Source of the DNA: Candidatus Fimadaptatus sp.
GTDB taxonomy: Bacteria > Bacillota > Clostridia > Christensenellales > Aristaeellaceae
NCBI GenBank assembly: GCA_963928645.1
Contig: CAWVGT010000109.1
Coordinates: 1 to 57,762, forward strand
Length of the DNA stretch: 57,762 bases
Reading direction: 5' to 3'
Positions within the stretch are counted from its first letter, which is position 1, and each line of letters starts with the position of its first letter. Shown here one piece after another: positions 8,849-46,376 of the stretch. The notes beneath the pieces are model-generated. The model was not told where the DNA came from and did not search any database. It worked only from the letters and a program-made list of their open reading frames with translations. The translations under genes were made by a program, and so were the position numbers.

Positions 8849-10207
8849 ATGGCTGACATGATAATACAGGGCATGCACGGCTGCAGCGCGGCCGAGAGCT
8901 ACGTGCCGCCGCGCGAGGAGCTGGTGCGCGAGCGGCTGGAGTGGTTCATGGATCAGAAGCTGGCGCTGATGATGCACTTTGGGCCGTATGCGCAGCTGGG
9001 CATCTGCGAGTCCTGGCCGCTGAGCGACGAGGACGCGTCGTGGTCGCGCAGCGAGGTCGACTGGGAGCGCGACCCGGAGGTGTTTCGCCGCCAGTACGTG
9101 AACCTCAACCGCTCGTTCAACCCGGTGCGCATGGTGCCGGAGCAGTGGGCGGACATAGGCGCGCGCGACGGCTTTAAGTACCTGATATTCACGACCAAGC
9201 ATCACGACGGCTTCTGCATGTACGACACCAAGTACACCGACTACAAGGTCACATCGCCCGACTGCCCGTTCAGCTTACACAAGTACGCCGACGTGGCGCG
9301 CCACGTGTTCGACGCGTTCCGGGCGCGGGGCATAGCGATAGCGGCGTACTTCTCCAAGCCGGACTGGCACTGCCCGTGGTACTGGGCGCCGGGCATGGCG
9401 ATGCCCGTGGGCGCATGGCGCAACCCGACCTATGTGCCCCAGGAGCACCCGGAGCTGTGGGAGCAGTACGTGCAGTTCACGCACAATCAGCTCATGGAGC
9501 TGCTCACCGATTACGGGCGCATAGACATAATCTGGCTGGACGGCGGCCAGGTGTCGCCGCAGAACGGCCAGGATATACGCCTGGGCGAGGTGCTGAGCCG
9601 GGCGCGCGAGCGGCAGCCCTGGCTGATTTCGGCCGACCGCACCGTGGGCGGCGAGAACGAGAACTACATAACCCCCGAGCAGAGCGTGCCCACCAGCGTG
9701 ATACCCGTGCCGTGGGAGAGCTGCATAACGGTGGGCACGGGCTTTGCGTTCAAGTACGAGGACAGGTACAAGTCGCCGCGCGAGTTGGTCAATCTGCTTA
9801 TAAGCGTGGTGTGCCGCGGCGGCAACCTGGCGCTCAACATATCGCCGCAGCCCGACGGGCGGCTGCCGCGCGGCGCGGTGGAGTCGGCCGACGGCCTGGG
9901 CGCGTGGCTGCGCGCCAACGGCGAGGCGATATACGCGACCCGCGTCTGCGAGCCGTACGAGGTCGGCGAGTTCGCGTTCACCCAGCGCGCGAGGGAGCGG
10001 CGGGTGTACGCGCTGCTGCGGCTGGGCGAGGGCGAGCAGCTGGGCGAGGAGGTCGTGATACCGTATCAGGGCGATGTGCGGCGCGTCGTGCTGCTGGACT
10101 GCGGCGAGCTGGGCTTTGAGCGGGTTGAGCAGGGCATAAAGGCGCGCCTGCCGTATGCGCTGCGGGGCGCGGCGCCGATAGCGCCGGCGTTCCGGCTGGA
10201 GCTGTAG
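8849..10207 (+). CDS. Alpha-L-fucosidase (GH29)
   Basis: 452 aa with an AAGGAG RBS. The GH29 signature is GFKYLIFTTKHHDGFCMYDTKYTDYKV, followed by FSKPDWHCPWYW and IDIIWLDGG. Confidence 0.85.
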   Translation: MADMIIQGMHGCSAAESYVPPREELVRERLEWFMDQKLALMMHFGPYAQLGICESWPLSDEDASWSRSEVDWERDPEVFRRQYVNLNRSFNPVRMVPEQWADIGARDGFKYLIFTTKHHDGFCMYDTKYTDYKVTSPDCPFSLHKYADVARHVFDAFRARGIAIAAYFSKPDWHCPWYWAPGMAMPVGAWRNPTYVPQEHPELWEQYVQFTHNQLMELLTDYGRIDIIWLDGGQVSPQNGQDIRLGEVLSRARERQPWLISADRTVGGENENYITPEQSVPTSVIPVPWESCITVGTGFAFKYEDRYKSPRELVNLLISVVCRGGNLALNISPQPDGRLPRGAVESADGLGAWLRANGEAIYATRVCEPYEVGEFAFTQRARERRVYALLRLGEGEQLGEEVVIPYQGDVRRVVLLDCGELGFERVEQGIKARLPYALRGAAPIAPAFRLEL

Positions 10208-10252
10208 CCGGGCGAGTTTCGACGGTTTACAGATTCTTTATAAAAATACGTA

Positions 10253-10281
10253 TTGCCTTTGCGTCCGATTTGTGATATCAT
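10253..10281 (+). promoter_or_regulatory. Candidate promoter of the aromatic amino-acid operon leader
   Basis: TTGCCT (10253-10258), 17-nt spacer, TATCAT (10276-10281), with TGA immediately upstream (extended -10-like). Confidence 0.5.
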
Positions 10282-10365
10282 ATACGCGGATTTTATCGAC
10301 AAAGCGCCTGGTGCGTCGCATGCGATAAAGGCATTCGGCGGCCCGGAGCGGAAGGGATAACTGCC

Positions 10366-10431
10366 ATGAGCAAGCTGTTTGCAGCCGAATACTTTAGCTA
10401 CTTTTACTTTACCGGCTTGAGGTCAAAGTAA
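10366..10431 (+). CDS. Putative 21-aa Phe/Tyr-rich leader peptide (MSKLFAAEYFSYFYFTGLRSK)
   Basis: The reading is ATG 10366 ... TAA 10429-10431, found by hand because it is below the ORF-track cutoff. A GAAGGGA SD-like sequence lies 8 nt upstream. There are 4 Phe and 3 Tyr in 21 codons, six of them within the seven codons 9-15. The codon run TAC TTT TAC TTT ACC (10399-10413) is complementary to 10421-10436. Confidence 0.6.
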   Translation: MSKLFAAEYFSYFYFTGLRSK

Positions 10432-10474
10432 AAGTAATTCGTGCTGCACGCATTTTCCGATATAGAGGATAAAT

Positions 10475-10515
10475 GAGAGGATTCGCAGTTGAATTACTGC
10501 GGATCCTCTTTTTTG
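10475..10515 (+). terminator. Intrinsic terminator (attenuator) 31 nt upstream of aroF
   Basis: GAGAGGATTCGCAG-TTGAATTA-CTGCGGATCCTC forms a 12-bp stem followed by TTTTTTG. It sits between the leader ORF and the aroF RBS (AAGGAG at about 10534). Confidence 0.85.
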
Positions 10516-10546
10516 ATATTTTAATTAAGGTTAAGGAGATGTCACT

Positions 10547-11566
10547 ATGATAGTCGTGCTCAAGAAGGATACCCGCAAGGAAGAGATGGACAACCTGATA
10601 ACCTGGCTGGAGAGTCAGAACGTGCGCACGCATGTGTCGTGCGGCGAGTACCAGACGGTGATAGGCCTGATAGGCGATACGACGCAGATCGACACCGACC
10701 TGATAGGCGGCCTGGACATAGTGGACAGCGTGACGCGCATAACCGACCCGTTCAAGAAGGCCAACCGCAAGTTCCATCCCGACGACAGCGTGATCCAGAT
10801 CGCCGATCAGATAGCGGTGGGCGGGGGCCACTTCCAGTTCATCGCGGGGCCGTGCTCGGTGGAATCGGCGGAGCAGCTGATGTGCATCGCCGACGCGGTC
10901 AAAAAGAGCGGCGCGCATCTGCTGCGCGGCGGCGCGTTCAAGCCGCGCACCTCGCCCTATGACTTCCAGGGGCTGCACGACGAGGGCATAAAGTTGCTGC
11001 TGGAGGCCAAGCGCCGCACCGGCATGCCGATAGTGACCGAGATAATGAACGCGAATCACCTGCCGCTGTTTGAGGATGTGGACGTTATACAGGTCGGCGC
11101 GCGCAACATGCAGAACTTTGAGCTGCTCAAGGAGCTGGGCCGCACCAACAAGCCCATACTGCTCAAGCGCGGCCTGGCCAATACCATAAAGGAGCTGCTG
11201 ATGAGCGCCGAGTACATAATGGCGGGCGGCAACGAGAACATAATGCTGTGCGAGCGCGGCATACGCACGTTCGAGACCTACACGCGCAACACGCTCGACC
11301 TGTCGGCGGTCACGGTGCTGCACGAGCTGACGCACCTGCCGGTAGTGGTCGACCCGAGCCACGCCACTGGCGTGTCGCGCTACGTCAAGTCGATGGCGCT
11401 GGCCGCGGCGGCGTGCGGCGCGGACGGGCTGATGATAGAGGTGCACAACGACCCCAAGCACGCCAAGTGCGACGGCGCGCAGTCGCTGACGCCCGCGCAG
11501 TTCGACGACGTGGCGCGCTCGGTGCTGGCGGTGCGCGCGGCGATAGGGGGCGGGGACAATGGCTGA
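10547..11566 (+). CDS. aroF: 3-deoxy-7-phosphoheptulonate (DAHP) synthase, class I-beta with an N-terminal ferredoxin-like regulatory domain
   Basis: 339 aa. The N-terminal domain of about 70 aa ([26 protein letters not shown]...) is followed by a KDO8PS-like core ([35 protein letters not shown]). Confidence 0.93.
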
Positions 11567-12413
11567 GCGCAGCATGATAGGCGTGGTCGGGCTGGGCCTC
11601 ATCGGCGGCTCGATGTGCAAGGCGCTGGTCAAGGCGGGCCACGTGGTCGTGGGCATGGATGCCGACGCCACGACCGAGGACTACGCCAAACTCGCGGGCA
11701 TAATCGACGACAAGCTGAGCGACGCGCGGCTGGGCGAGTGCGACTACCTGTTCATAGCGCTGTATCCGGCGGCGGCGGTCGACTACCTGCGGCGCAACGC
11801 GTCCAAGCTCAAGCCGGGTGCGGTCGTGATGGACCTGTGCGGCGTAAAGCGCGCGGTGTGCGCGCCGTGCTTTGAGCTGGCCCGGGAGCATGGGTTCACC
11901 TACATAGGCGGCCACCCAATGGCGGGCACGCAGTTCTCGGGCATCAAGTACGCGCGCGACGACATGTTCAACAACGCCACGATGGTCATGGTCACGCGCG
12001 AGGACGAGGACCTGTACGTGCTCAGCCGCGTGCGCGACCTGCTGCGCGACGCCGGGTTCAAGGCGGTCACGCTGACCAGCGCCGACAAGCACGACGAGAT
12101 GATAGCGTTCACCTCGCAGCTGGCGCACGTCGTGTCCAACGCATACGTCAAGTCGCCCACGGCGCAGGCGCACCACAGCTTCTCGGCGGGCAGCTATCGC
12201 GACCTGACGCGCGTGGCCAAGCTCAACGAGACGATGTGGACCGAGCTGTTCCTGGACAACGCCGACTACCTGGGCAACGAGCTGGACTGGATAATCGGCG
12301 CGCTCAGCGAGTACCGCGACGCGATAAGGCGCGGCGACGCCGACACGCTCAAGCGGCTGCTGCGCGAGGGCCGCGAGCGCAAGGAGGCGATCGATACCGA
12401 ATGGAAGCGCTGA
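11559..12413 (+). CDS. tyrA: Prephenate dehydrogenase
   Basis: 284 aa with a Rossmann N-terminus (IGVVGLGLIGGSMCKAL), GGHPMAG and FTSQLAHVVS motifs. The start overlaps the aroF stop (ATGGCTGA). Confidence 0.9.
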   Translation: MAERSMIGVVGLGLIGGSMCKALVKAGHVVVGMDADATTEDYAKLAGIIDDKLSDARLGECDYLFIALYPAAAVDYLRRNASKLKPGAVVMDLCGVKRAVCAPCFELAREHGFTYIGGHPMAGTQFSGIKYARDDMFNNATMVMVTREDEDLYVLSRVRDLLRDAGFKAVTLTSADKHDEMIAFTSQLAHVVSNAYVKSPTAQAHHSFSAGSYRDLTRVAKLNETMWTELFLDNADYLGNELDWIIGALSEYRDAIRRGDADTLKRLLREGRERKEAIDTEWKR

Positions 12414-13462
12414 CGATAAACACGAAACCCGCCTACCGGGTGCTGCTGGGCCGGGAGCTGTTGGAGCGGGCAGGCGAGCTCAGCCGCGAGGCGCTGCGCG
12501 GGCGCAGGGTGCTGGTGGTGTCGGACGACAACGTGGCGCCGCTCTACCTTGAGCGCGTGCGCGAGTCGTATGCGCGCGCGGGGTTTGCCGTGGACGAGTA
12601 CGTGGCGCCGCATGGCGAGCACGCCAAGTCGCTCAATACGCTGAGCGACCTGCTCGAGCGCGCGGCGGCGCTGGGGCTGACGCGCGCCGACGCGATGGTC
12701 GCGCTGGGCGGCGGCGTGATAGGCGACCTGACCGGGCTGGCGGCGGCGCTGTACATGCGCGGCATAGAGCTGGTGCAGCTGCCCACGACGCTGCTGGCGA
12801 TGGTTGACTCGTCGGTCGGCGGCAAGACCGCGGTCAATCTGGCGGCGGGCAAGAACCTGTGCGGCGCGTTCTACCAGCCGCGGCTGGTGCTCTGCGACAC
12901 GGGCGCGCTGGCCACGCTGCCGCGCGAGATATACGCCGAGGGCATGGCCGAGGTCATAAAGTACGGCGCAATCTGCTCGCCCTGGATACTGGACGAGCTG
13001 GCGCGCGGCGGCGACCTGACCGCGGTGATACGCGAATGCGTGCGCATAAAGGGCGACATAGTCGAGCGCGACGAGCGCGACCTGGGCCTGAGGCAGCTGC
13101 TCAACTTCGGGCACACATTTGGCCATGCGATAGAGAAGCTCAGCGACTTTGGCATGTACCACGGCGAGGCGGTGAGCGTGGGCATGCTGATAGCGGCGCG
13201 CGTGGCGCAGGCGCAGGGCTGGTGCGCGGACGACGTGTACGGCGAGCTGCATGCGCTGCTCAGCGCGCAGTCGCTGCCGCTGACCACGCGCTTCACGGCG
13301 GCCGAGATAGCCGCGCACGCGATGAGTGACAAGAAGAAGCAGGGCGCGCGGCTGACGCTGGTGCTGCCCGAGCGGCGCGGCAGCTGCGCGCTGCGCGAGA
13401 TAGCCGCGTCCGAGCTCGAGGCGCTGATGGCGCCGTGTGAAGGACTGGTGACGGGCGTATGA
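12401..13462 (+). CDS. aroB: 3-dehydroquinate synthase
   Basis: Start trimmed to ATG 12401 (MEALTINTKPAYRVLLG...). It has GGGVIGDLTGLAAALYMRGIELVQLPTTLLAMVDSSVGGKTAVN and the HTFGHAIE metal site. It overlaps the tyrA end. Confidence 0.93.
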   Translation: MEALTINTKPAYRVLLGRELLERAGELSREALRGRRVLVVSDDNVAPLYLERVRESYARAGFAVDEYVAPHGEHAKSLNTLSDLLERAAALGLTRADAMVALGGGVIGDLTGLAAALYMRGIELVQLPTTLLAMVDSSVGGKTAVNLAAGKNLCGAFYQPRLVLCDTGALATLPREIYAEGMAEVIKYGAICSPWILDELARGGDLTAVIRECVRIKGDIVERDERDLGLRQLLNFGHTFGHAIEKLSDFGMYHGEAVSVGMLIAARVAQAQGWCADDVYGELHALLSAQSLPLTTRFTAAEIAAHAMSDKKKQGARLTLVLPERRGSCALREIAASELEALMAPCEGLVTGV

Positions 13463-14739
13463 ACATCCGGATAACCCCGGGCGCGCTGTCCGGGCGGATT
13501 AGCGACGTGATAGCGTCCAAGTCGCAGGCGCATAGGGTGCTGATCTGCGCCGCGCTGGCCGACGCGCCCACGCAGATAGAGTGCAACTCGCAGTCGCAGG
13601 ACATACGCGCCACGGCGCGCTGCATAGAGGCGCTGGGCGCGCGTGTGGAGTTCTGCCCGGGCGGCATGCGCGTAAGCCCCGTGCCGCGCGGCGCACAGTC
13701 GGCCGGCGCGGAGCTGGACTGCGGCGAGAGCGGTTCAACGCTCAGGTTCATGCTGCCGCTGGCGGGCGCGCTGGGCGCGGATTGCGCGTTCACGGGCCAG
13801 GGGCTGCTGGCCAGCCGGCCGCTGTCGCCGCTGTACGAGCAGCTCGCGCGGCACGGCATGGCGCTGTCGCCGGCGGGCGCGTTTCCGCTGAGCTGCGCGG
13901 GCAGGCTGCAGCCGGGCCGCTATGAGCTCGTGGGCAATGTGTCCTCCCAGTTCATCACCGGGCTGCTGCTGGCGCTGCCGCTGCTGGACGGCGACAGCGA
14001 GATAGCGGTCGCGGGACGGCTAGAGTCCGAGCCATACGTCAACATGACATTGGACGCGCTGGCGCTGTTCGGCATAGGCGTGGAGCGCGCGACCGGCGAC
14101 GACAGGGTATACCATGTGGCGGGCGGTCAGCGCGCGCGCACGCCGGGCCGGGTGCGCATAGAGGGCGACTGGTCGAGCGCGGCGTTCTGGCTGGCAGCCG
14201 GGGCGCTGGGCGGCATGGGCGTGGAGTGCGCGCCGCTCGACGCGGCCTCGTCGCAGGGCGACCGCGCTATACTGGACATACTCAGGCGCTTTGGCGCGGG
14301 CGTGGAGCTGAGCGGGGATGCGGCGCGCGTGCATCCGGCCACGCTCACGGGCATAGAGCTGGATGCGACCGACATACCCGACCTCGTGCCTGTAACCGCG
14401 GTGGTAGCGGGCGCGGCGCGCGGCCGGACGCGCATCACGGGCATAGCGCGGCTCCGGCTCAAGGAATCGGATCGCGTGGCGACGGTGTTAGCGATGCTGC
14501 ATGCGCTGGGCGTGGAGGCATTCGAGCACGACGGCGCGCTGACGATATACGGCCGGGGCACGCTGCTGGGCGGTACGATCGATTCGTTCAACGACCACCG
14601 CATAGCGATGGCGGCGGCGATAGCGGGCAGCGCGGCGCGCACGCCGGTCACGGTGCGGGGCGCGCAGGCGTGCGCCAAGTCGTATCCGGGTTTCTTTGAC
14701 AAGTTTGCGGCGCTGGGCGGCCGGGTTGAGGAGGTTTGA
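13459..14739 (+). CDS. aroA: 3-phosphoshikimate 1-carboxyvinyltransferase (EPSP synthase)
   Basis: 426 aa with SKSQAHRVLICAAL, a LDCGESGSTLRFM-type motif and a NDHRIAMAAAIAG C-terminal motif. The ATGA start overlaps the aroB stop. Confidence 0.93.
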   Translation: MNIRITPGALSGRISDVIASKSQAHRVLICAALADAPTQIECNSQSQDIRATARCIEALGARVEFCPGGMRVSPVPRGAQSAGAELDCGESGSTLRFMLPLAGALGADCAFTGQGLLASRPLSPLYEQLARHGMALSPAGAFPLSCAGRLQPGRYELVGNVSSQFITGLLLALPLLDGDSEIAVAGRLESEPYVNMTLDALALFGIGVERATGDDRVYHVAGGQRARTPGRVRIEGDWSSAAFWLAAGALGGMGVECAPLDAASSQGDRAILDILRRFGAGVELSGDAARVHPATLTGIELDATDIPDLVPVTAVVAGAARGRTRITGIARLRLKESDRVATVLAMLHALGVEAFEHDGALTIYGRGTLLGGTIDSFNDHRIAMAAAIAGSAARTPVTVRGAQACAKSYPGFFDKFAALGGRVEEV

Positions 14740-14740
14740 C

Positions 14741-15814
14741 ATGCCTTCGGTATTTGGCGATAGGATCAGGGTATCGGTATTCGGGCAGTCGCACTCGGAG
14801 GCGATAGGCGTCGTGATAGACGGCCTGCCCGCGGGCATTGCAATCGACATGGACGAGCTGCGCGCGTTTATGGCGCGGCGCGCGCCCGGGCAGGGCCGGC
14901 ACACCACCGCGCGGCGCGAGGCCGACCTGCCCGAGTTCGTGAGCGGCGTGGTGGACGGCGTGACCTGCGGCGCGCCGGTGTGCGCGCTGATACGCAACAC
15001 CGATACGCGCTCGGGCGACTACGCGAACCTGCGCGACGTGCCGCGGCCGGGCCACGCCGACTACACGGCCTACGTCAAGTTTGGCGCGGCGCACGACATA
15101 CGCGGCGGGGGCCACTTCTCAGGCCGACTGACCGCGCCGCTGTGCATAGCGGGCGGCATAGCGCTGCAGCTGCTCGCGGGGCGCGGCGTGAGCGTGGGCG
15201 CGCACCTGGCGTCGGTGGGCGATGTGGAGGACGCGCGGTTCGATCCGGTCAGCGTGTGCGCGCGGGACTTTGCGGCGCTGCGCACAAACGCGCTGCCGGT
15301 GCTGGACGCCGGCGCGGCGCAGCGCATGCTGGACGAGATAGAGCGCGCGCGGCTGGACGCGGACTCGATCGGCGGCACGATAGAGTGCGCGATAGTCGGG
15401 CTGCCGGCGGGGCTGGGCGACGCGCTGTTTGGCGGGCTGGAGGGCCGGCTGGCGCAGGCGCTGTTTGGCGTGCCGGCGGTCAAGGGCGTGGAGTTTGGCA
15501 GCGGGTTTGCGGGCGCGCGCACGCGGGGTTCGGTCAACAACGACGCGTTTGAGGTCGAGGCGGGGCGCATAAGGTGCGCGACCAACAACGCCGGCGGCAT
15601 ACTGGGCGGCATATCCAGCGGCATGCCGGTGGTGTTCCGGGTGGCGGTAAAGCCCACGGCGTCGATAGGCCGACCGCAGCGCAGCGTGAGCCTGAGCCGG
15701 GGCGAGCCGGCGGAGCTGGTGGTAAAGGGCCGGCACGACCCGTGCATAGCGCCGCGCGCGGTGCCGGTGATAGAGGCGGTCGCGGCGCTGGCGGTGTTGG
15801 AGTACATACTATAA
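14741..15814 (+). CDS. aroC: Chorismate synthase
   Basis: Start trimmed to ATG 14741 (MPSVFGDRIRVSVFGQSHSEAIGVVIDGLP...), 1 nt after the aroA stop. It has RPGHADY and GRHDPCIAPRAVPV motifs. Confidence 0.93.
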   Translation: MPSVFGDRIRVSVFGQSHSEAIGVVIDGLPAGIAIDMDELRAFMARRAPGQGRHTTARREADLPEFVSGVVDGVTCGAPVCALIRNTDTRSGDYANLRDVPRPGHADYTAYVKFGAAHDIRGGGHFSGRLTAPLCIAGGIALQLLAGRGVSVGAHLASVGDVEDARFDPVSVCARDFAALRTNALPVLDAGAAQRMLDEIERARLDADSIGGTIECAIVGLPAGLGDALFGGLEGRLAQALFGVPAVKGVEFGSGFAGARTRGSVNNDAFEVEAGRIRCATNNAGGILGGISSGMPVVFRVAVKPTASIGRPQRSVSLSRGEPAELVVKGRHDPCIAPRAVPVIEAVAALAVLEYIL

Positions 15815-15839
15815 TATAGAAGGGCAGAGGGCGAGCAAT

Positions 15840-16982
15840 ATGGACATGAATCAGATACGTCAGCGCATAGACGAGATAGATGCGGGCATAGTCGAGCTGT
15901 ATAAGCAGCGCATGGAGGCGGTCAGCGAGATAGGCGCATACAAGCGCGCCAACAAGCTGCCGGTATACGACAGCGAGCGCGAGCGCAACCTGCTCAACAA
16001 GGTGGCCGAGCAGGCCGGCGAGGAATACGAGGGCGGCGTGCGCGCGATGTTCCAGACGATAATGGATCTGTCGCGCTCGTATCAGCTGCGCGCACTGGGG
16101 CGCGCGTCCGCGCTGGCCGAGCGCATGAACGCGGCGGTAGAGTCAACCGAGCAGCTGTTCCCGCCCAAGGCCATGGTCGCGTGCCAGGGCGTGGAGGGCG
16201 CGTATTCGCAGATAGCGTGCGAGAAGCTGTTCAAGGCGCCGTCGATAATGTACTGCAAGAACTTCGAGAGCGTGTTCGCGGCGATAGAGGCGGGGCTGTG
16301 CCGCTACGGCGTGCTGCCGATAGAGAACAGCCTGGCGGGCTCGGTCAACAGCGTGTACGACCAGATGATATCGCATAACTTCTACATAGTGCGCAGCGTG
16401 CGCATCAAGGTGGATCACTCGCTGCTGGCGCGCCCGGGCGTAAAGCTCGAGCAGGTGCGCGAGGTGTACTCGCATGAGCAGGCACTGAGCCAGTGCTCGC
16501 AGTTCCTGGCCTCGCACAAGGACATACACGTCAACGTGTGCAGCAACACCGCGGCGGCGGCCAAGCTGGTGGCCGAGTCGGATCGCGACGACGTGGCGGC
16601 GATAGCCTCGGGCAACTGCGGCGCGCTGTACGGGCTCAACTGCATAGGCGCCGACATACAAAACGACGGCAACAACCACACGCGCTTCATCTGCATCTCC
16701 AAGAAGCTCGAGATCTACCCGGGCGCGGATCGCACCAGCCTCATGGCGGTGCTGCCCAACCGCGTGGGCTCGCTGTACCACATGCTGAGCCGGTTCTACG
16801 CGCTGGGCATAAACCTCACCAAGCTCGAATCGCGCCCGATGCCCGGCCATGACTTCGAGTTCATGTTCTACTTCGACGTGGACGCCTCGATATACGCGCC
16901 CGGGCTCAAGCAGCTGATAGCCGAGCTGGATACCGAACTCGACCGGTTCACGTACCTGGGCAGCTATTCGGAAGTGGTGTGA
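15840..16982 (+). CDS. pheA: Bifunctional chorismate mutase / prephenate dehydratase (P-protein) with a C-terminal ACT domain
   Basis: 380 aa. The CM_2 N-terminus is IRQRIDEIDAGIVELYKQRMEAV. The PDT core is VACQGVEGAYSQIA...LPIENSLAGSV. The ACT domain is TSLMAVLPNRVGSLYHMLSRFYALGINLTKLESRP. Confidence 0.92.
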   Translation: MDMNQIRQRIDEIDAGIVELYKQRMEAVSEIGAYKRANKLPVYDSERERNLLNKVAEQAGEEYEGGVRAMFQTIMDLSRSYQLRALGRASALAERMNAAVESTEQLFPPKAMVACQGVEGAYSQIACEKLFKAPSIMYCKNFESVFAAIEAGLCRYGVLPIENSLAGSVNSVYDQMISHNFYIVRSVRIKVDHSLLARPGVKLEQVREVYSHEQALSQCSQFLASHKDIHVNVCSNTAAAAKLVAESDRDDVAAIASGNCGALYGLNCIGADIQNDGNNHTRFICISKKLEIYPGADRTSLMAVLPNRVGSLYHMLSRFYALGINLTKLESRPMPGHDFEFMFYFDVDASIYAPGLKQLIAELDTELDRFTYLGSYSEVV

Positions 16983-16986
16983 CGGT

Positions 16987-18243
16987 ATGTGCGACATGGA
17001 GCGATACGGCCTGCTGGGCGAGAAGCTGGGTCACAGCTATTCGGCGCTGATACACGGCCTGTTCGGCGGGTATTCATATGAGCTGTATCCGATGCCGCGC
17101 GAGGCGGTGCCGGGGTTCATTGAGCGGCGCGAGTTCCGCGCGATAAACGTCACGATACCGTACAAGGAACTGGTAATGCCGTACCTGGACACAATATCGG
17201 ACAACGCGCGCGCGATAGGCAGCGTGAATACGATCGTAAAGGACGCGCAGGGCGCGCTGCATGGCTTCAACACCGACAAGTACGGCTTTGAGCAGCTGCT
17301 AAAGCGCTCGGGCATAGCCGTATCCGGGCGCAAGTGCCTGGTGCTGGGCAGCGGCGGCTCGTCCAAGACGGTGCGCGTGGTGCTGCGCGAGCAGGGCGCG
17401 CGGGAGGTACGCATAATATCGCGTACGGGCGAGGACAACTACTCCAACCTGGAGCGCAACGCGGACGCGCAGGTGATAGTCAACACCACGCCGGTGGGCA
17501 TGTACCCCAATACCGGGGTCGCGCCGCTCGAACTGAGCCGGTTCCCGCAGCTGGAGGGCGTGCTGGATCTGATATACAATCCGGCGCGCACGCAGCTGCT
17601 GCTGGACGCAGAGCGGCTGGGGGTGCGCTGCGCCAACGGGCTGCACATGCTGGTGGCGCAGGCCAAGCTCGCCAGCGAGCTGTTCCGCGACGTTCAGCTG
17701 GACGATGGCATAATCGATCGCGTGCGCGCGCGGATAGAGCGCGACACGCACAACATAGTGCTGATAGGCATGCCCGGCAGCGGCAAGACCACGCTGGGCG
17801 AGCGGCTCGCGCAGCGGCTCGGGCGGCAGCTGATAGACACCGACGAGAGCGTGATGGCCATAACGGGCGGGCGCGACGCGGCGTCGATAATCCGCAACGA
17901 GGGCGAGGCCGAGTTCAGGCGGATCGAGACATGCGCGGTGCGCGAGGCGGGCATGCGCAGCGGCTGCGTCATAGCGACCGGCGGCGGCGTGGTTACGCAG
18001 CGCGCCAACCGCGACCCGCTGCGGCAAAACTCGGTCATATTCTTTGTGGACAGGCCGCTTGAGCAGTTGGAGCTCAGCGATACGCGTCCGCTGTCTATGA
18101 CGCGCGCCCAGAACGAGGCGCTGTACGCGCACAGGCGGCCGCTGTACGAAGAGCTGTGCGACTATGCGGTGCGCAATATAGAGATCGATACGGCGGTGAA
18201 CGACATAATACGCGCGTTCGACGCGCACTTTGGCGAGGTGTGA
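16987..18243 (+). CDS. aroE-aroK: Shikimate dehydrogenase fused to shikimate kinase
   Basis: 418 aa. The N-terminal AroE part has LGHSYSALIH, NVTIPYKE, VNTIV and NTDKYGF. The C-terminal AroK part has the Walker A motif NIVLIGMPGSGKTTLGERLA and TGGGVV. The start could be 16987 or 16996. Confidence 0.9.
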   Translation: MCDMERYGLLGEKLGHSYSALIHGLFGGYSYELYPMPREAVPGFIERREFRAINVTIPYKELVMPYLDTISDNARAIGSVNTIVKDAQGALHGFNTDKYGFEQLLKRSGIAVSGRKCLVLGSGGSSKTVRVVLREQGAREVRIISRTGEDNYSNLERNADAQVIVNTTPVGMYPNTGVAPLELSRFPQLEGVLDLIYNPARTQLLLDAERLGVRCANGLHMLVAQAKLASELFRDVQLDDGIIDRVRARIERDTHNIVLIGMPGSGKTTLGERLAQRLGRQLIDTDESVMAITGGRDAASIIRNEGEAEFRRIETCAVREAGMRSGCVIATGGGVVTQRANRDPLRQNSVIFFVDRPLEQLELSDTRPLSMTRAQNEALYAHRRPLYEELCDYAVRNIEIDTAVNDIIRAFDAHFGEV

Positions 18244-18246
18244 GCG

Positions 18247-18693
18247 GTGAAACTGCTGATAATAAACGGCCCGAATATAAACATGCTGGGCATACGCGAG
18301 CCGGACATATACGGCCGCGAGACGTACCGGGGGCTGTGCGAGTATATCGCGAACCATGCCCAGGCGCTGGGCGCGGACATAGAGCTGTTCCAGTCCAACA
18401 GCGAGGGCGAGCTGGTGACCGCCATACAGAAGGCGTATGGCCATGTTGACGGCATAGTGATAAACCCGGCCGCGTATACCCACACCAGCGTAGCGATACT
18501 CGACGCGCTCAAGGCTGTGGCTATACCCGCAGTCGAGGTGCACCTGAGCGATATCAATCAGCGCGAGGAGTTCAGGCACATATCGTACGCGGGCATGGCG
18601 TGCGAGGCGCATTATGTGGGCCTGGGGTTCGAGGGCTATGCGCACGCCATGGAGTATCTCGTGAACAAGTACGGCGGCAAAACCGGGGCGTAG
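18247..18693 (+). CDS. aroQ: Type II 3-dehydroquinate dehydratase
   Basis: 148 aa with a GTG start. Motifs LLIINGPNINMLGIREPDIYG, GIVINPAAYTHTSVAI and EVHLSDI are present. Confidence 0.93.
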   Translation: MKLLIINGPNINMLGIREPDIYGRETYRGLCEYIANHAQALGADIELFQSNSEGELVTAIQKAYGHVDGIVINPAAYTHTSVAILDALKAVAIPAVEVHLSDINQREEFRHISYAGMACEAHYVGLGFEGYAHAMEYLVNKYGGKTGA

Positions 18694-41498: not shown

Positions 41499-42560
41499 TT
41501 ATTGCAGATATCCCGCGATCAGCTCGCCGCAGCGCCGGCAGCCGACCCGGGTCGCGCCGGCGCCCATTATGTCGGCGGTGCGATAGCCCGCGTCCAGGAA
41601 CGCCGACACCGCGGCCTCTATTGCGTTCGCCTCGCGCGGCAGGTCGAAGCTGAAGCGCAGCATCATCGCTGCTGCTAGTATGGTGCCGATGGGGTTGGCG
41701 ATATCCTGGCCGGCGATGTCCGGAGCCGAGCCGTGTATCGGCTCGTACAGGCCGCATGCGCTCGCGCCCAGGCTGGACGAGGGTATCATGCCTATCGAGC
41801 CGGTTATCATGGACGCCTCGTCCGAGAGTATGTCGCCGAACATGTTCTCGGTCACGATCACGTCGAACTGCGAAGGATCCTTTACGATCTGCATCGCGCA
41901 GTTGTCGACCAGCATGTCGCTCAGCGCAACGTCGGGGTATTCGTGGGCCAGCTCGTGCATGACCTGCTTCCACAGCCGGCTCGAATCCAGCACGTTTGAC
42001 TTCTCCACCGAGCAAAGCCGGCCGCGCCGCCGGCGCGCAGTCTCAAATCCGATGCGCCCTATGCGCTCTATCTCGGCACGGCTGTACCGGAGCACGTCTA
42101 TCGCGGTATCGCCCTCGGTGCGGTGCTCGCCAAAGTATATGCCGCCGATCAGCTCGCGCACTATGATGAAGTCTATGCCCTTGTCTACGATCGACTGCCT
42201 GAGCGGCGACGCGTCGGCCAGCTGCGGCCAGATCCTGGCCGGGCGGTTGTTGGAGTACACGCCCATGCCGGCGCGCAGCCGGAGCAGGCCCTTTTCGGGG
42301 CGCATCGGGCCGGGCACGTCGTTCCACTTGGGGCCGCCGACCGCGCCCAGCAGCACGCTGTCGGATTCCACGCACCTTTTGAGCATGTCGGCCGGCAGCG
42401 GGTCGCCCCAGCGGTCGATCGCGCAGCCGCCCATGTCCACGTCTATGTACTCGAAGCTGTGGCCGTACAGCGCGGCCACGCGGTCGAGCACGCGCATCGC
42501 CTGCGCGACTATCTCGGGGCCTATGCCGTCGCCGCGAATCACCGCTATCCGCTTATCCAT
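41499..42560 (-). CDS. leuB: 3-isopropylmalate dehydrogenase
   Basis: 353 aa with [44 protein letters not shown] and [12 protein letters not shown] motifs. Confidence 0.95.
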
Positions 42561-43050
42561 TCGCCGCGCCTTCTTTCAGCGACTTGAGCAGCCCGCCGCT
42601 TCTTATTATATTCTGTATGAACGGCGGGAAGGGCTGCGCGCGGAACGACTCGCCGGTCGTCAGGTCGGTTATAACGCCGGTATCGAAATCCACGCTGACC
42701 TCGTCGCCGGCGCTTATGGCGTCGGCCGCGGCCTCGCACTCGAGTATGGGCATGCCTATGTTTATAGCGTTGCGGTAGAATATGCGCGCAAAGCTCTTGG
42801 CGATTATGCAGCCCACGCCGCAGGTCTTTATCACCAGCGGCGCGTGCTCACGCGACGAGCCGCAGCCAAAGTTCCAGCCGCCCACAATCACGTCGCCCGC
42901 GCTCACGCGCTTTACGAAGTCGGCGTCGATGTCCTCCATGCAGTGCTGCGCCAGCTCCTGCGCGTCGGGCGTGTTCAGATAGCGCGCGGGTATTATCACG
43001 TCGGTGTCCACGTTGTCGGGATATTTGAATACCTTGCCCTTGGCGTTCAT
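42553..43050 (-). CDS. leuD: 3-isopropylmalate dehydratase small subunit
   Basis: 165 aa with [14 protein letters not shown] and [15 protein letters not shown] motifs. It overlaps the leuB start by 8 nt. Confidence 0.93.
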
Positions 43051-43053
43051 CGC

Positions 43054-44313
43054 TCAAGCCTCCTTGTACTCGGTTATGTAGCCGGCCAGCGCGCTGGCCG
43101 CGGCGGTGTGCGGCGAGGCCAGGTACACCTCGCTGTCCACGTGGCCCATGCGCCCCACGAAGTTGCGGTTGGTCGTGGCCACGCAGCGCTCGCCCGCGGC
43201 GAGTATGCCCATGTATCCGCCCAGGCAGGGCCCGCAGGTCGGCGTGGACACGACCGCGCCCGCGTCTATGAACGCGGTGTACCAGCCGCGCTGCACGCAC
43301 TCGCGCAGTATCTGCATCGTGCCGGGTATTATTATGCAGCGCACGCCGCGGGCTATCTGCTTGCCATTGATTATGTTGTACGCGGCCTCCATGTCCTCCA
43401 GGCGGCCGTTGGTGCAGGAGCCTATCACGACCTGAACGATGGCAATGTCGTGCAGCTCGCTGGCGGGGCGGGTGTTCTCGGGCAGGTGCGGGCAGGCGAC
43501 GGTGGGCACAATCGCGCTCAGGTCGATGTCGATTACGCGCTCGTACTCGGCGTCGGCGTCGGCCGCATACTCTACCGGGGTGCGCTCGCTGCGGCCCGCG
43601 AGGTAGGCGCGCGTCACGTCGTCGACCGGGAATATGCCGTTCTTGGCGCCGGCCTCGACCGCCATGTTGCAGATGCAGAGCCGGTCGTCCATCGAGAGCG
43701 CGCGCACGCCCTCGCCCGTGAACTCCATGCTCTTGTAGAGCGCGCCGTCCACGCCTATCATGCCTATGATCGTCAGTATCACGTCCTTGCCGGAGCAGTT
43801 GCCCGGCAGCCTGCCGGTCAGGTTGAACTTGATCGCCGAAGGCACCTTGAACCAGGCCGTGCCCGTGGCCATGCCCGCGGCCATGTCGGTGGAGCCAACG
43901 CCAGTGGAAAACGCGCCCAGCGCGCCATAGGTGCAGGTGTGGCTGTCCGCGCCGATTATGCAGTCGCCCGCGGTCACTATGCCCTGCTCGGGCAGCAGCG
44001 CGTGCTCAATGCCCATCCTGCCGACGTCGTAGAAGTGGCTGACGCAGTGAGCGCACGCGAACTCGCGGCTGGTCTTGGACTGCTCGGCGGCCTTGATGTC
44101 CTTGTTGGGCACGAAGTGATCCAGCACTATCGCGATCCGGTCGCGATCGAACACGCCCTCAAAGCCCGCCTTTTTGAACTCGTTCACGGCCACGGGCGTG
44201 GTTATGTCGTTGCCCAGCACGATGTCCAGCCTGGCGCTTATCAGCTGTCCGGCGACCACGCTGTCCAGCCCGGCGTGGGCGGCCAGTATCTTCTGAGTCA
44301 TTGTCATTGCCAT
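43054..44313 (-). CDS. leuC: 3-isopropylmalate dehydratase large subunit
   Basis: 419 aa with aconitase-family motifs: [23 protein letters not shown], and the cluster Cys residues in IGSCTNGR and CGPCLG. Confidence 0.93.
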
Positions 44314-44316
44314 AGA

Positions 44317-45987: not shown

Positions 45988-46080
45988 AGCTGCAACTTCT
46001 CCTTCTGCGCTCAGTAATCGGGAAACTGTGGCGCCGCGGGCGAACCCGGCGGCCAGGCGGGCCGCGCCCTGCCGGGCGAT

Positions 46081-46376
46081 AAAAAACACCCGTCCCAAAG
46101 CACGTGCTCGCTTTGAGACGGGTGAAACATACTTGCCACTCGCGGTACCACTCAAATTGCGGATATCCATCCGCCACCTCTTTGAAGTCAAACAACTTCT
46201 ATGCACTGACGTAGCATGCACGGGGCGCCCTACTTAACTCTCCGAAAGAGGTTCAGGAGCCCGGCTCGAAAGGCAGAGGACAAAGGGCTCGCGTGCCGGT
46301 TTGCACCAACCACCGGCTCTCTGGGACGCACTGCGCCTTGACCATTCTTCGTCATAGCCTTTGTGTTATTTAATTG
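46081..46376 (-). ncRNA. T-box leader (tRNA-sensing riboswitch) of the leuACDB operon
   Basis: On the minus strand: the T-box motif AATTTGAGTGGTACCGCGAG (46139-46158); the terminator CACCCGTCTCAAAG...CTTTGGGACGGGTG plus TTTTTT (46081-46124); and an upstream AGAGAG element followed by the hairpin CCGGTGGTTGGTGCAAACCGG, which fits a Stem-I distal region. Specifier candidates are CUC and CUU, but the codon is not resolved. Confidence 0.85.

Follow-up and report, generated by a model that had tools for sequence, protein, structure and literature searches.

The window analysed here, that is, the whole 57.7-kb stretch of DNA, carries on its forward strand an operon for the biosynthesis of aromatic amino acids, with an intrinsic terminator placed directly in front of its first structural gene:

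10475..10514, + strand: intrinsic terminator, 15-pair stem (10475-10489 with 10496-10510), 6-nt loop, T6 run at 10509-10514
10531-10537, + strand: Shine-Dalgarno sequence of aroF, AAGGAGA
10547..18693, + strand: aro/tyr/phe operon of eight genes, aroF-tyrA-aroB-aroA-aroC-pheA-aroE/K-aroQ, as assigned by Pfam scans

According to the Pfam assignments, the aroF product is a DAHP synthase with an N-terminal FXD domain, the pheA product has the arrangement CM-PDT-ACT, aroE and aroK are fused, and aroQ encodes a type II enzyme. Both tyrA and pheA lie inside the operon, so that Phe and Tyr, the amino acids enriched in the leader peptide described below, are its end products. The T run of the terminator ends 31 nt before the aroF ATG (10547). 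An earlier note on this DNA had described a strong terminator with a T6 run at this distance, which is what we find, although the stem comprises 15 pairs rather than the 12 bp that it counted.

Upstream of the terminator lies a short reading frame with its own promoter and ribosome binding site:

10253..10281, + strand: sigma-70-type promoter, -35 TTGCCT (10253-10258), 17-nt spacer, extended -10 TGaTATCAT (10273-10281)
10305..10350, + strand: predicted stable hairpin in the 5' UTR (minimum-free-energy fold), directly upstream of the leader Shine-Dalgarno sequence
10350..10357, + strand: leader Shine-Dalgarno sequence GGAAGGGA, 8 nt 5' of the ATG (10366)
10366..10431, + strand: leader ORF of 21 codons plus stop, peptide MSKLFAAEYFSYFYFTGLRSK
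10390..10410, + strand: regulatory codons 9-15, TAC TTT AGC TAC TTT TAC TTT (Y F S Y F Y F), where the ribosome is proposed to stall

The promoter shows 9 of 12 consensus matches plus the TG of an extended -10, is one of just two promoter-like sites within 9800-11000 (shuffle mean 0.4), and its -35 and TGnTATAAT elements are kept in the two nearest relatives, L001 and L002; transcription is expected to start near 10288. The stretch between this start and the leader ORF is poorly conserved, the nearest relatives included, and the hairpin at 10305-10350, which is partly conserved in L001 and L002, may serve in mRNA stabilisation or as a pause element. Within the leader ORF, Tyr and Phe make up six of the seven codons 9-15, with F-Y-F at codons 13-15, and this is the sole short ORF on either strand of the window with at least six aromatic residues in eight. 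The promoter-like element and the Phe/Tyr-rich ORF were thus both present where the earlier note had placed them, the latter with a Shine-Dalgarno sequence upstream.

We compared this arrangement with 81 aroF upstream regions from a set of 80 genomes whose AroF proteins are 63-94% identical. As had been predicted for orthologous loci, an ORF with at least six aromatic residues in eight was found in 57 of the 81 regions, as against 2/81 on the reverse strand and 0/81 in dinucleotide shuffles, the enrichment in F and Y being confined to one strand and one frame. The ATG, the Shine-Dalgarno sequence and the in-frame F/Y run are kept over 68 related leaders while the flanking sequence diverges, and the peptides of these leaders contain 19% F, 15% Y and 0.1% W. 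A purine-rich, Shine-Dalgarno-like sequence precedes most of 69 candidate leader ORFs from related loci, and all 68 analysed leaders possess a hairpin and T-run terminator located 16-101 nt (mostly 20-60 nt) 5' of aroF. In most Oscillospirales, Lachnospirales and Christensenellales-like Clostridia of gut and rumen, a leader of this family stands before aroF. The element is real and widely conserved in Clostridia, and its cultured carriers include Pseudoflavonifractor sp. AF19-9AC (L018) and Angelakisella massiliensis (L051). The 13 loci that lack an obvious leader mostly have aroF within an operon or belong to Bacteroidaceae, and an Rfam search of these 13 gave no match. Among individual loci, the leader of one is displaced upstream by about 400 nt (L036), another has only a weak F/Y leader (L058), and a third retains a terminator-like hairpin but has no F/Y ORF (L004).

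In a first alternative, the element is a stalling attenuator that reports general translation stress, such as antibiotics or global starvation, in the manner of erm, vmlR and hflX-type leaders. The combination of an upstream ORF with a terminator and antiterminator is indeed common to antibiotic-responsive Firmicute leaders (PMC9226507, PMC8632094). However, the genes downstream of the present leader are those of Phe and Tyr biosynthesis rather than resistance, and the trait that is conserved is a run of 5-8 F/Y codons and not a specific arrest peptide. Furthermore, a pattern search of metagenomes returned the same leader type in front of aroF in 8 of 10 matches and once in front of a putative binding protein of an amino-acid ABC transporter, which makes a general stress sensor extremely improbable. 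One metagenome match (L082) consists of a simple hairpin followed by neither an ORF nor an aro gene, and is probably a chance match.

A second alternative treats the small ORF as incidental and the leader RNA itself as the sensor of a ligand, a tRNA or a protein, in the manner of a riboswitch, a diverged T-box or a TRAP/PTRAP-like target, acting through the same terminator and antiterminator. Such systems are common on Firmicute amino-acid operons, and one of them lies within the window itself, where the Rfam library also used on the leader recovered the T-box that the earlier note had assigned to the leu operon, at 46111-46364 on the minus strand (91.5 bits, just below the Rfam cut-off of 93; E about 1e-18 to 1e-20), with leuA-leuC-leuD-leuB downstream. 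In addition, a diverged T-box can evade Rfam (PMC5314783), and the 78-nt 5' UTR holds the unexplained stable hairpin at 10305-10350. Against this, Rfam gave no matches anywhere in the window at gathering cut-offs, and at E <= 10 the leader region 10150-10600 returned no T-box (RF00230) or riboswitch, its matches being chance-level microRNA and lncRNA families and an 18-bit match to a leu/phe leader considered below. The T-box motifs GGUGGNACC, GGUGGNACCGCG-like and GGTGGNACC are likewise missing from the leader, in agreement with the earlier reading that it contains no T-box motif, and membership of a T-box or riboswitch family was rejected here. The TRAP site of the B. subtilis trp leader consists of nine to eleven (G/U)AG triplets, 2-3 nt apart, that overlap the antiterminator. 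We found just nine scattered GAG/UAG triplets of irregular spacing over 10346-10536, with no regular (G/U)AG array, a pattern that does not fit TRAP-type attenuation. Taken with the strand- and frame-specific F/Y enrichment, the retention of start codon, Shine-Dalgarno sequence and F/Y run across 68 leaders, and the poor conservation of the stretch between transcription start and ORF, these results render a sensing RNA very unlikely.

Between the F/Y codons and the terminator, the transcript can adopt alternative helices formed by the following segments:

10379..10413, + strand: region 1 (5' strand of the anti-antiterminator), with outer segment UUGCAGCCGAAU and inner segment UACUUUUACUUUACC
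10421..10447, + strand: region 2, GGUCAAAGUAAAAGUAAUUCGUGCUGC, which can pair with region 1 or region 3; the leader stop codon (10429-10431) falls within it
10451..10475, + strand: small spacer hairpin between regions 2 and 3, within the loop closed by the antiterminator
10485..10498, + strand: region 3, GCAGUUGAAUUACU, comprising the upper part of the terminator 5' arm together with the loop and the beginning of the 3' arm; antiterminator partner of 10433-10447

The predicted fold of 10288-10520 has a free energy of -90.7 kcal/mol, as against -63.1 +/- 4.7 in dinucleotide shuffles (z = -5.9), and the predicted duplex energies of the 1:2, 2:3 and 3:4 helices are -29.9, -17.1 and -25.6 kcal/mol, respectively. 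The 1:2 hairpin had been proposed from the pairing of 10399-10413 with 10421-10436, an inner helix that involves codons 12-16 and that we also find; its extent was understated, however, as an outer helix is added by pairing of GCAGCCGAAU (10381-10390) with AUUCGuGCUGC (10437-10447), which involves codons 6-9. The antiterminator was likewise correctly located, but the helix found here, which pairs AGUAAUUCGuGCUGC (10433-10447) with region 3 over 14 bp with one bulge, is stronger than the 7 + 4 bp first suggested for it. Even so, the predicted antiterminator is weaker than the terminator (-17 vs -26 kcal/mol). The pairing segments of the spacer hairpin, UUUUCC and GGAUAAA, are kept in L001 and L002. 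Across the family, the consensus of region 1 is UUUGCAGCnGAA-UAC-UUU-UAC-UUU, that of region 2 is AAAGUAAAAGUGAUUUgUGCUGCAA and that of region 3 is cGCAGUGAAAUCACUGCg.

The predicted fold of these segments depends on the position of the ribosome. Equilibrium folding of the full-length leader retains the terminator under every ribosome mask, including one with the ribosome at the stop codon. Since a full-length equilibrium fold is no test of a kinetic switch, transcripts truncated before the terminator 3' arm were refolded. When codons 9-14 are masked in a transcript that ends at 10497-10500, the 2:3 helix forms in the minimum-free-energy structure, whereas this helix is absent from truncated transcripts that carry no ribosome or have the A-site at codon 15-16. 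The comparison of folds with and without masked regulatory codons that the earlier note had called for thus yields the antiterminator it predicted. Because the terminator is always kept at equilibrium, the switch would have to be kinetic, and requires a ribosome that does not fall behind RNA polymerase. The mask at the stop codon was applied on the full-length leader, the other mask positions also on transcripts cut before the 3' arm, so that we infer the behaviour under amino-acid plenty in part.

All three helices covary among the orthologs, as had been anticipated. In a swap test over 62 loci, cognate duplexes were more stable than non-cognate ones both for 1:2 (mean -24.2 vs -17.6 kcal/mol) and for 2:3 (-17.6 vs -12.1 kcal/mol), with Wilcoxon p values of about 1e-10 to 1e-11 (about 1e-11 for 2:3), while median per-locus z-scores against shuffles were -3.4 for 1:2 and -2.7 for 2:3. 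Column-wise pair counts were made on a plain MAFFT alignment of 42 leaders and are independent of structure. For the terminated-state structure 85% of cells were paired, compared with 75% in shuffles and 34-49% with slid partners, and 148 double-change cells were counted where 47 were expected, a number reached by 0 of 500 shuffles, which ignore relatedness. For the antiterminator the corresponding values were 77%, 72% and 31-57%, with 34 double-change cells vs 16.7 expected, again reached by 0 of 500 shuffles that ignore relatedness; antiterminator pairs with a change on both sides showed no excess over shuffles on this alignment (234/500), and antiterminator covariation on the MAFFT alignment is therefore modest. 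Compensatory changes in the terminator occur in L001 and across the 42 leaders, and changes from Phe UUU to Tyr UAU codons are compensated in region 2, columns 51/89 reading UA in 23 sequences and AU in 11. When the terminator-arm bases with upstream partners were counted locus by locus, the outcome was noisy (median 10 nt without and 15 nt with a ribosome mask), and we therefore relied on the shuffle z-scores, the swap test and the column-wise pair counts.

These patterns also bear on a third alternative, in which the product of the small ORF is itself a functional, hydrophobic micropeptide, or the ORF affects translation or mRNA stability and nothing else, and the terminator is constitutive and leaky, setting a fixed level of expression. 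Peptides rich in F and Y are hydrophobic and could enter membranes, the leader ORF is well conserved and has a good Shine-Dalgarno sequence, and the terminator always wins at equilibrium. However, the F/Y run is the sole part conserved as peptide: leader peptides range from 15 to 42 residues in length, and genomes differ in the frame in which region 2 is read, all three being represented (17, 15 and 10 sequences), which argues that it is conserved as RNA and not as peptide. Covariation between region 2 and the top of the terminator would be needless for a constitutive terminator, and the enriched amino acids are the end products of the operon itself. We consequently regard a micropeptide or a fixed leaky terminator as highly improbable.

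Together these observations make it very probable that the leader attenuates transcription by way of a ribosome on the leader peptide ORF, with charged tRNA-Phe and tRNA-Tyr as the signals sensed, and that the aro/tyr/phe operon is most likely switched on when charged Phe/Tyr tRNA becomes limiting. The trpL/pheL-type logic proposed in the earlier note gains support from each of its computational checks, namely the lack of a riboswitch match, the conserved ORF and terminator, the covariation and the ribosome masking. In the mechanism that we envisage, transcription would start near 10288 and the leader ORF would be translated as it emerges. When Phe and Tyr are plentiful, the ribosome would pass codons 9-15 and reach the stop codon at 10429-10431 inside region 2, which would then either lie under the ribosome or return to its pairing with region 1, allowing the terminator at 10475-10514 to form and transcription to stop before aroF. 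The placement of the stop codon inside region 2 fits such occlusion by a terminating ribosome, and 32 of the 42 aligned leaders have their stop codon within region 2 or immediately 3' of it. Under shortage of charged tRNA-Phe or tRNA-Tyr, stalling of the ribosome on YFSYFYF (10390-10410) would hold region 1 open, so that region 2 (10433-10447) could pair with region 3 (10485-10498) once the latter has been made; this pairing would take away the top of the terminator 5' arm and let RNA polymerase enter the eight-gene operon. Translation of the leader ORF, the relative timing of ribosome and polymerase, and the response to Phe and Tyr are, in this account, predictions from the sequence.

Since attenuation by a leader peptide needs a ribosome that paces RNA polymerase, the prevalence of this leader bears on transcription-translation coupling in Clostridia. 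Transcription in Bacillus subtilis reportedly runs ahead of translation. Data from C. difficile argue against such runaway transcription as a general feature of Clostridia, and a premature termination event has been seen at aroF in that species (PMC8237595). The present leader offers a well-resolved example of how the shikimate, Phe and Tyr pathways may be controlled in many gut and rumen Clostridia, here by a leader peptide rather than by the T-box or TRAP systems that standard teaching assigns to Firmicutes. For annotation, the small ORF and its leader should be recorded as a regulatory element instead of being labelled a hypothetical protein or left as empty intergenic space.

Several known systems resemble the leader to differing degrees. 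It shares with E. coli pheL-pheA and trpL-trp a short ORF with codons for the end products, alternative 1:2, 2:3 and 3:4 helices and a terminator before the first structural gene (PMC11802643), but it has no sequence similarity to them and no match to the Phe- or Trp-leader families of Rfam, mixes Phe with Tyr codons, controls the common pathway together with both branches, and occurs in a Clostridium-class Firmicute. The leu/phe leader of Lactococcus (Rfam RF01743) is likewise a Firmicute leader-peptide attenuator with Leu or Phe codons and a terminator; membership of this family was rejected at 18.3 bits (E = 1.7, gathering cut-off 70). In Acholeplasma, uORFC-13-1 lies solely upstream of aroF and has been proposed as an attenuator (Brewer et al. 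2021, PMC8632094). Compared by description, it too has an upstream ORF with a ribosome binding site, Phe codons and an adjacent intrinsic terminator, and it differs in being restricted to Acholeplasma and in having a U run that codes for at least one Phe, with no Tyr/Phe alternation reported (PMC8632094).

The aroR leader of Corynebacterium glutamicum also places a peptide with Phe-Tyr-Phe before a DAHP synthase gene (cited in PMC11802643 and PMC6429828), although it belongs to Actinobacteria and its peptide and RNA structure are described as distinct from the Firmicute motifs (PMC6429828). Experimentally, Phe limitation raised read-through into aroF while Tyr supply was without effect (Neshat et al. 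2014, as cited in PMC11802643), and, since this attenuator is affected by Phe and not by Tyr limitation, dual sensing of Phe and Tyr is not assured for the leader described here.

The closest systems are uORF-12 and uORF-13, published as candidate "aromatic amino acid attenuators" with an F-Y-F peptide and a terminator, located mostly before aroF/tyrA in Clostridiales, other Firmicutes and environmental DNA (Stav et al. 2019, BMC Microbiol 19:66, PMC6429828). About half of the 336 examples of uORF-13, whose type locus is in Clostridium novyi NT (NC_008593.1:2308872-2309418), lie upstream of aroF with tyrA next, and some precede amino-acid transporters; both motifs were proposed to work like the trp attenuator (PMC6429828). 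Rfam 15 contains no model of this published motif. The view that a leader-peptide attenuator would be unusual for a Firmicute, from which the earlier note had set out, is thus out of date: this kind of attenuator is already described, and the leader in the window adds a member. By the published description, the likeness extends to the short ORF with a ribosome binding site, F-Y-F, the downstream terminator stem and the aroF-tyrA context, as well as to the contexts seen in metagenomes, where our leader type precedes aroF and an ABC transporter binding protein. The F/Y run is enclosed by the outer helix found here (10381-10390 with 10437-10447; family consensus UUGCAGC:GCUGCAA), which by description only can be set beside P1 of the published motifs, in which F-Y-F is located "within the loop of P1" and no antiterminator is given (PMC6429828). 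In the present leader, by contrast with that description, the F/Y codons also pair with region 2 to give an inner helix, and a 2:3 antiterminator that covaries has been specified. It is conceivable, if rather doubtful, that the family forms a lineage distinct in sequence and structure from uORF-12 and uORF-13 and truly senses two inputs (Phe or Tyr), with RNA pairing limiting which codons it can use, the last point resting on the compensation of UUU to UAU changes in region 2. If so, its near-universal presence would imply tight transcription-translation coupling in these Clostridia, unlike in Bacillus subtilis. To the published candidate motif, the leader described here adds an explicit antiterminator supported by covariation and a prediction of the bases to mutate.

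Ahead of the eight-gene aromatic operon of the window, the leader at 10253-10546 very probably acts as a transcription attenuator in which the translating ribosome gauges the supply of charged tRNA-Phe and tRNA-Tyr, as judged from sequence comparison and modelled folds. The promoter, the 21-codon ORF rich in Phe and Tyr (F/Y), the competing hairpins and the terminator before aroF described in the earlier note were all found, arranged as follows (1:2 denotes the anti-antiterminator, 2:3 the antiterminator and 3:4 the terminator; SD, Shine-Dalgarno):

upstream neighbour, ending at 10207: alpha-L-fucosidase gene (Pfam scan)
10253-10281, plus strand: sigma-70-type promoter, TTGCCT, 17-nt spacer, TATCAT with extended -10 TG
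78-nt 5' UTR, plus strand: includes a predicted hairpin at 10305-10350 (predicted fold)
10350-10357, plus strand: leader SD, GGAAGGGA
10366-10431, plus strand: leader ORF, 21 codons, MSKLFAAEYFSYFYFTGLRSK
10429-10431, plus strand: leader stop codon, within region 2
10379-10413, plus strand: region 1, pairs with region 2
10421-10447, plus strand: region 2, pairs with region 1 or, through 10433-10447, with region 3
10485-10498, plus strand: region 3, top of the terminator, partner of 10433-10447
10475-10510, plus strand: intrinsic terminator hairpin of textbook form, 15 pairs, T run to 10514
10531-10537 and 10547, plus strand: SD and start of aroF, downstream of the terminator
10547-18693, plus strand: operon of aroF, tyrA, aroB, aroA, aroC, pheA, aroE-aroK fusion and type II aroQ (Pfam scans)

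The gene set of this operon is the entire common pathway together with both the Phe and Tyr branches, and the pheA product carries chorismate mutase, prephenate dehydratase and ACT domains (Pfam). Shikimate_dh_N and SKI domains are fused in one 418-aa shikimate dehydrogenase-shikimate kinase (16987-18243), followed at the operon end by the type II dehydroquinase gene (18247-18693); with these two closing the operon, a single transcript would encode every step between DAHP and the end products Phe and Tyr. AroF (DAHP synthase) has an N-terminal ferredoxin-like FXD domain (10547-10750, PF18152), which in Thermotoga-type DAHP synthases is the allosteric Tyr/Phe-binding module, such that Phe and Tyr may control the pathway at two levels, through allostery and through attenuation. 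The stable hairpin predicted directly 5' of the leader SD is partially conserved in the two closest relatives. A minus-strand promoter-like match over the aroF SD region (10518-10545; GTGACA, 16-nt spacer, TAAAAT; 10/12) points away from aroF and is probably a chance occurrence in AT-rich sequence.

The leader (10288-10520) folds at -90.7 kcal/mol, compared to -63.1 +/- 4.7 kcal/mol for dinucleotide shuffles (z = -5.9). In the minimum-free-energy fold of the ribosome-free leader, region 1 is joined to region 2 through an inner helix (codons 12-16 with GGUCAAAGUAAAAGUA) and an outer helix (GCAGCCGAAU with AUUCGuGCUGC), and the terminator forms too; duplex energies are -29.9, -17.1 and -25.6 kcal/mol for 1:2, 2:3 and 3:4, respectively. 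At equilibrium, full-length RNA retains the terminator under every mask, and hence any switch must operate kinetically, like that of classical attenuators. Transcripts ended at 10497-10500, before the 3' arm of the terminator, were also folded with a 30-nt ribosome footprint masked. With the A-site at codons 9-14, AGUAAUUCGuGCUGC (10433-10447) now pairs with GCAGUUGAAUUACU (10485-10498) in the predicted fold, in line with the proposal that a stalled ribosome would melt 1:2 in favour of 2:3; the switch is absent if the ribosome is omitted or its A-site is placed at codon 15-16. A ribosome masked at the stop codon, modelled on the full-length leader only, leaves the terminator intact; since region 2 contains this codon, it would be covered by a ribosome terminating there. 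Between regions 2 and 3 lies a small hairpin (10451-10475), and AGAGGAT is present twice (10465-10471 and 10477-10483), the first copy being a possible alternative partner for the 3' arm of the terminator.

In the proposed mechanism the leader ORF would be translated, with polymerase pausing presumably keeping ribosome and polymerase in step. When charged tRNA-Phe and tRNA-Tyr are plentiful, the ribosome would arrive at the stop codon, the terminator would form and the transcript would stop near 10514. Under scarcity, the ribosome would stall at codons 9-15 (TAC TTT AGC TAC TTT TAC TTT), keeping region 1 open; region 3 would be captured by region 2, and polymerase would proceed into aroF. Both Phe and Tyr would be sensed in this manner; that the leader serves instead as a general sensor of translation stress is hardly credible, as the gene context argues otherwise.

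Throughout the 57.7-kb window, on both strands, the leader ORF is the sole ORF in which some stretch of 8 residues includes 6 or more aromatic ones. For comparison we examined 80 aroF loci from species-representative genomes, with AroF 63-94% identical to that of the window, the closest belonging to a Candidatus Fimadaptatus MAG (Clostridia) and the others mostly to Oscillospiraceae, Acutalibacteraceae, Lachnospiraceae, Ruminococcus, Lawsonibacter, Pseudoflavonifractor, Angelakisella and Emergencia. In 68 loci, aroF is preceded at 100-250 nt by a short F/Y-rich ORF that has an SD (e.g. MRNSVAAVYFYYFYFTGIGSK, MLCKTNATAYSFFYFYFYFNEK and MSLFVFAAAYFYFYFIMTRSKSDLCCK), and all 68 leaders analysed have a strong hairpin with a T-run, placed 16-101 nt (mostly 20-60 nt) before aroF. 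Of the 81 forward upstream regions, 57 encode 6 or more aromatic residues in 8, compared to 2/81 reverse complements and 0/81 dinucleotide shuffles. Across loci the peptides comprise 19% Phe, 15% Tyr and 0.1% Trp, a composition that matches an operon predicted to make Phe and Tyr, not Trp. A riboswitch, T-box or protein-binding leader in which the small ORF is incidental is very unlikely, given that the F/Y run is conserved frame-specifically and that the leader has neither T-box or TRAP motifs nor a match to any T-box, riboswitch or other Rfam element.

Loci without the leader mostly have aroF within an operon, or belong to Bacteroidaceae, and none of them carries a T-box or other Rfam element. 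At one locus (L036) an F/Y leader (MSRTFGFPFAFYFYGYRKSFLRREG; 2023-2100 of L036) lies ~400 nt further upstream of aroF. At another (L004, AroF identity 78%), a hairpin resembling a terminator precedes aroF (~2390-2420) without an F/Y-rich ORF; here the sensor was possibly lost or replaced, or the start misplaced. Three loci from Lawsonibacter and Pseudoflavonifractor (L005, L013 and L018; leaders ~2265-2456) have ORFs of 37-39 codons that read through region 2, which encodes a second LFAA, and stop just short of the terminator, such that a terminating ribosome would sit much closer to it than in the window. All four Phe codons of the window leader are TTT, compared to 72 TTC and 26 TTT in nine neighbouring genes (8849-18693), and its three Tyr codons are the preferred TAC; summed over all leaders, TTT occurs 292 times and TTC 49 times. 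Either a requirement to pair with AAA of region 2 or an origin in AT-rich relatives would fit the choice of TTT.

The RNA switch is itself conserved. Side by side, the leaders show a nucleotide-level consensus with uuUGCAGCnGAA UAC UUU UAC UUU as region 1, AAAGUAAAAGUGAUUUgUGCUGCAA as region 2 and cGCAGUGAAAUCACUGCg, at the top of the terminator, as region 3, region 2 being complementary to both of the others. Terminator loop and region 2 vary jointly: GUGAUUU:AAAUCAC in most genomes, GUAAUUC:GAAUUAC in the window, AGCGA:UCGCU in L023 and GAAAUUUGUGC:GCACGAAUUUC in L038. Relative to shuffled region 2, median per-locus z-scores are -3.4 for 1:2 (below -2 in 57/68) and -2.7 for 2:3 (46/68). In an alignment-free swap test of 62 loci, cognate duplexes average -24.2 kcal/mol compared to -17.6 for non-cognate duplexes (1:2), and -17.6 compared to -12.1 (2:3), with the cognate partner at a median rank in the best 5-9% (Wilcoxon p ~1e-10 to 1e-11).

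With 42 leaders aligned by MAFFT alone, RNAalifold returns the 1:2 core and the terminator. In this alignment the terminated-state structure has 85% of cells paired (shuffles 75%, slid partners 34-49%) and 148 double-change cells versus 47 expected, a number reached by 0/500 shuffles. The antiterminator has 77.3% paired (shuffles 72.2%, slid 31-57%); its covariation score is 0.219 versus 0.153 and its double-change cells number 34 versus 16.7 expected, both values being reached by 0/500 shuffles; its number of pairs with any double change is no higher than in shuffles. Furthermore, where UUU (Phe) of the regulatory run has given way to UAU (Tyr), region 2 shows the compensating change (columns 51/89: UA n=23, AU n=11). 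A functional micropeptide followed by a constitutive terminator is highly improbable given that the 2:3 helix covaries and that region 2 is conserved independently of frame: it is read in frames 0, 1 and 2 in 10, 15 and 17 of the 42 leaders, yielding ...KSKSDLCCK in some and a UAA stop within AAAGUAAAAGU in others. The stop codon lies in or just 3' of region 2 in 32/42 leaders, peptide length ranges across loci from 15 to 42 residues, and protein-level conservation is confined to the F/Y run. The three frames and varying lengths count against a functional peptide product and favour a sensing role for the ORF.

The leu operon of the same window is controlled, as the earlier note held, by a T-box: leuA, leuC, leuD and leuB (41499-46050, minus strand) are preceded at 46111-46364 (minus strand) by a T-box leader (RF00230; 91.5 bits, E ~1e-18 to 1e-20, with GUGGUACCGCG). 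This T-box is genuine; its score falls just below the Rfam gathering cut-off of 93, and it is thus overlooked by a standard scan. One genome therefore pairs a T-box for Leu with a leader peptide for Phe/Tyr.

Conservation and covariation of the three helices back the reading of the aroF leader as a trpL/pheL-type attenuator, which would follow the logic of pheL and trpL in E. coli. Such a leader can no longer be regarded as exceptional in a Firmicute, as this kind of element is already described: Stav et al. 2019 (PMC6429828) found two "aromatic amino acid attenuators", uORF-12 and uORF-13, in C. novyi. The former has 1258 examples, with transporters downstream in most; the latter has 336, from Bacillales, Clostridiales, Thermoanaerobacterales, Negativicutes and environmental DNA, with aroF downstream in about half and tyrA next, and in it a terminator follows a short ORF whose conserved F-Y-F lies in the loop of P1 (PMC6429828). 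The published uORF-13 model is absent from Rfam; compared with its published description, the window element has the short ORF, the F-Y-F, the terminator and the gene context, as well as an outer 1:2 helix around the F/Y run that could correspond to P1, and it likely belongs to uORF-13 formally. Other leader peptides include those for His in Bacilli (Naville and Gautheret 2010, PMC2965389), for Leu in Streptococcus (Millman et al. 2017, PMC5314783) and, upstream of aroF in Acholeplasma, uORFC-13-1 (Brewer et al. 2021, PMC8632094); premature termination was detected in the C. difficile aroF 5' UTR (Fuchs et al. 2021, PMC8237595). In C. glutamicum, aroR, an F-Y-F leader before aroF, was shown by Neshat et al. 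2014 (as cited in PMC11802643), with an effect from Phe limitation only. The Lactococcus leu/phe leader of Rfam scores only 18 bits in the window against a cut-off of 70. In an exact-pattern metagenome scan, the same leader precedes aroF-tyrA-aroB in 8/10 matches; in one (L086, contig Ga0310786_10261501, reverse strand, ~200-1330), MKRLDSVLSSFYYYFYFYADAKK, region 2 AAAGUAAAAGUGAUUUGUG and a terminator precede an ABC-transporter substrate-binding lipoprotein (PF04392), not aroF, which echoes the transporter contexts of uORF-12 and uORF-13 and suggests a small regulon including uptake. To these systems our analysis adds an explicit three-helix model, in which the antiterminator is supported by covariation, and the finding that nearly all Clostridia of gut and rumen have the element upstream of aroF.
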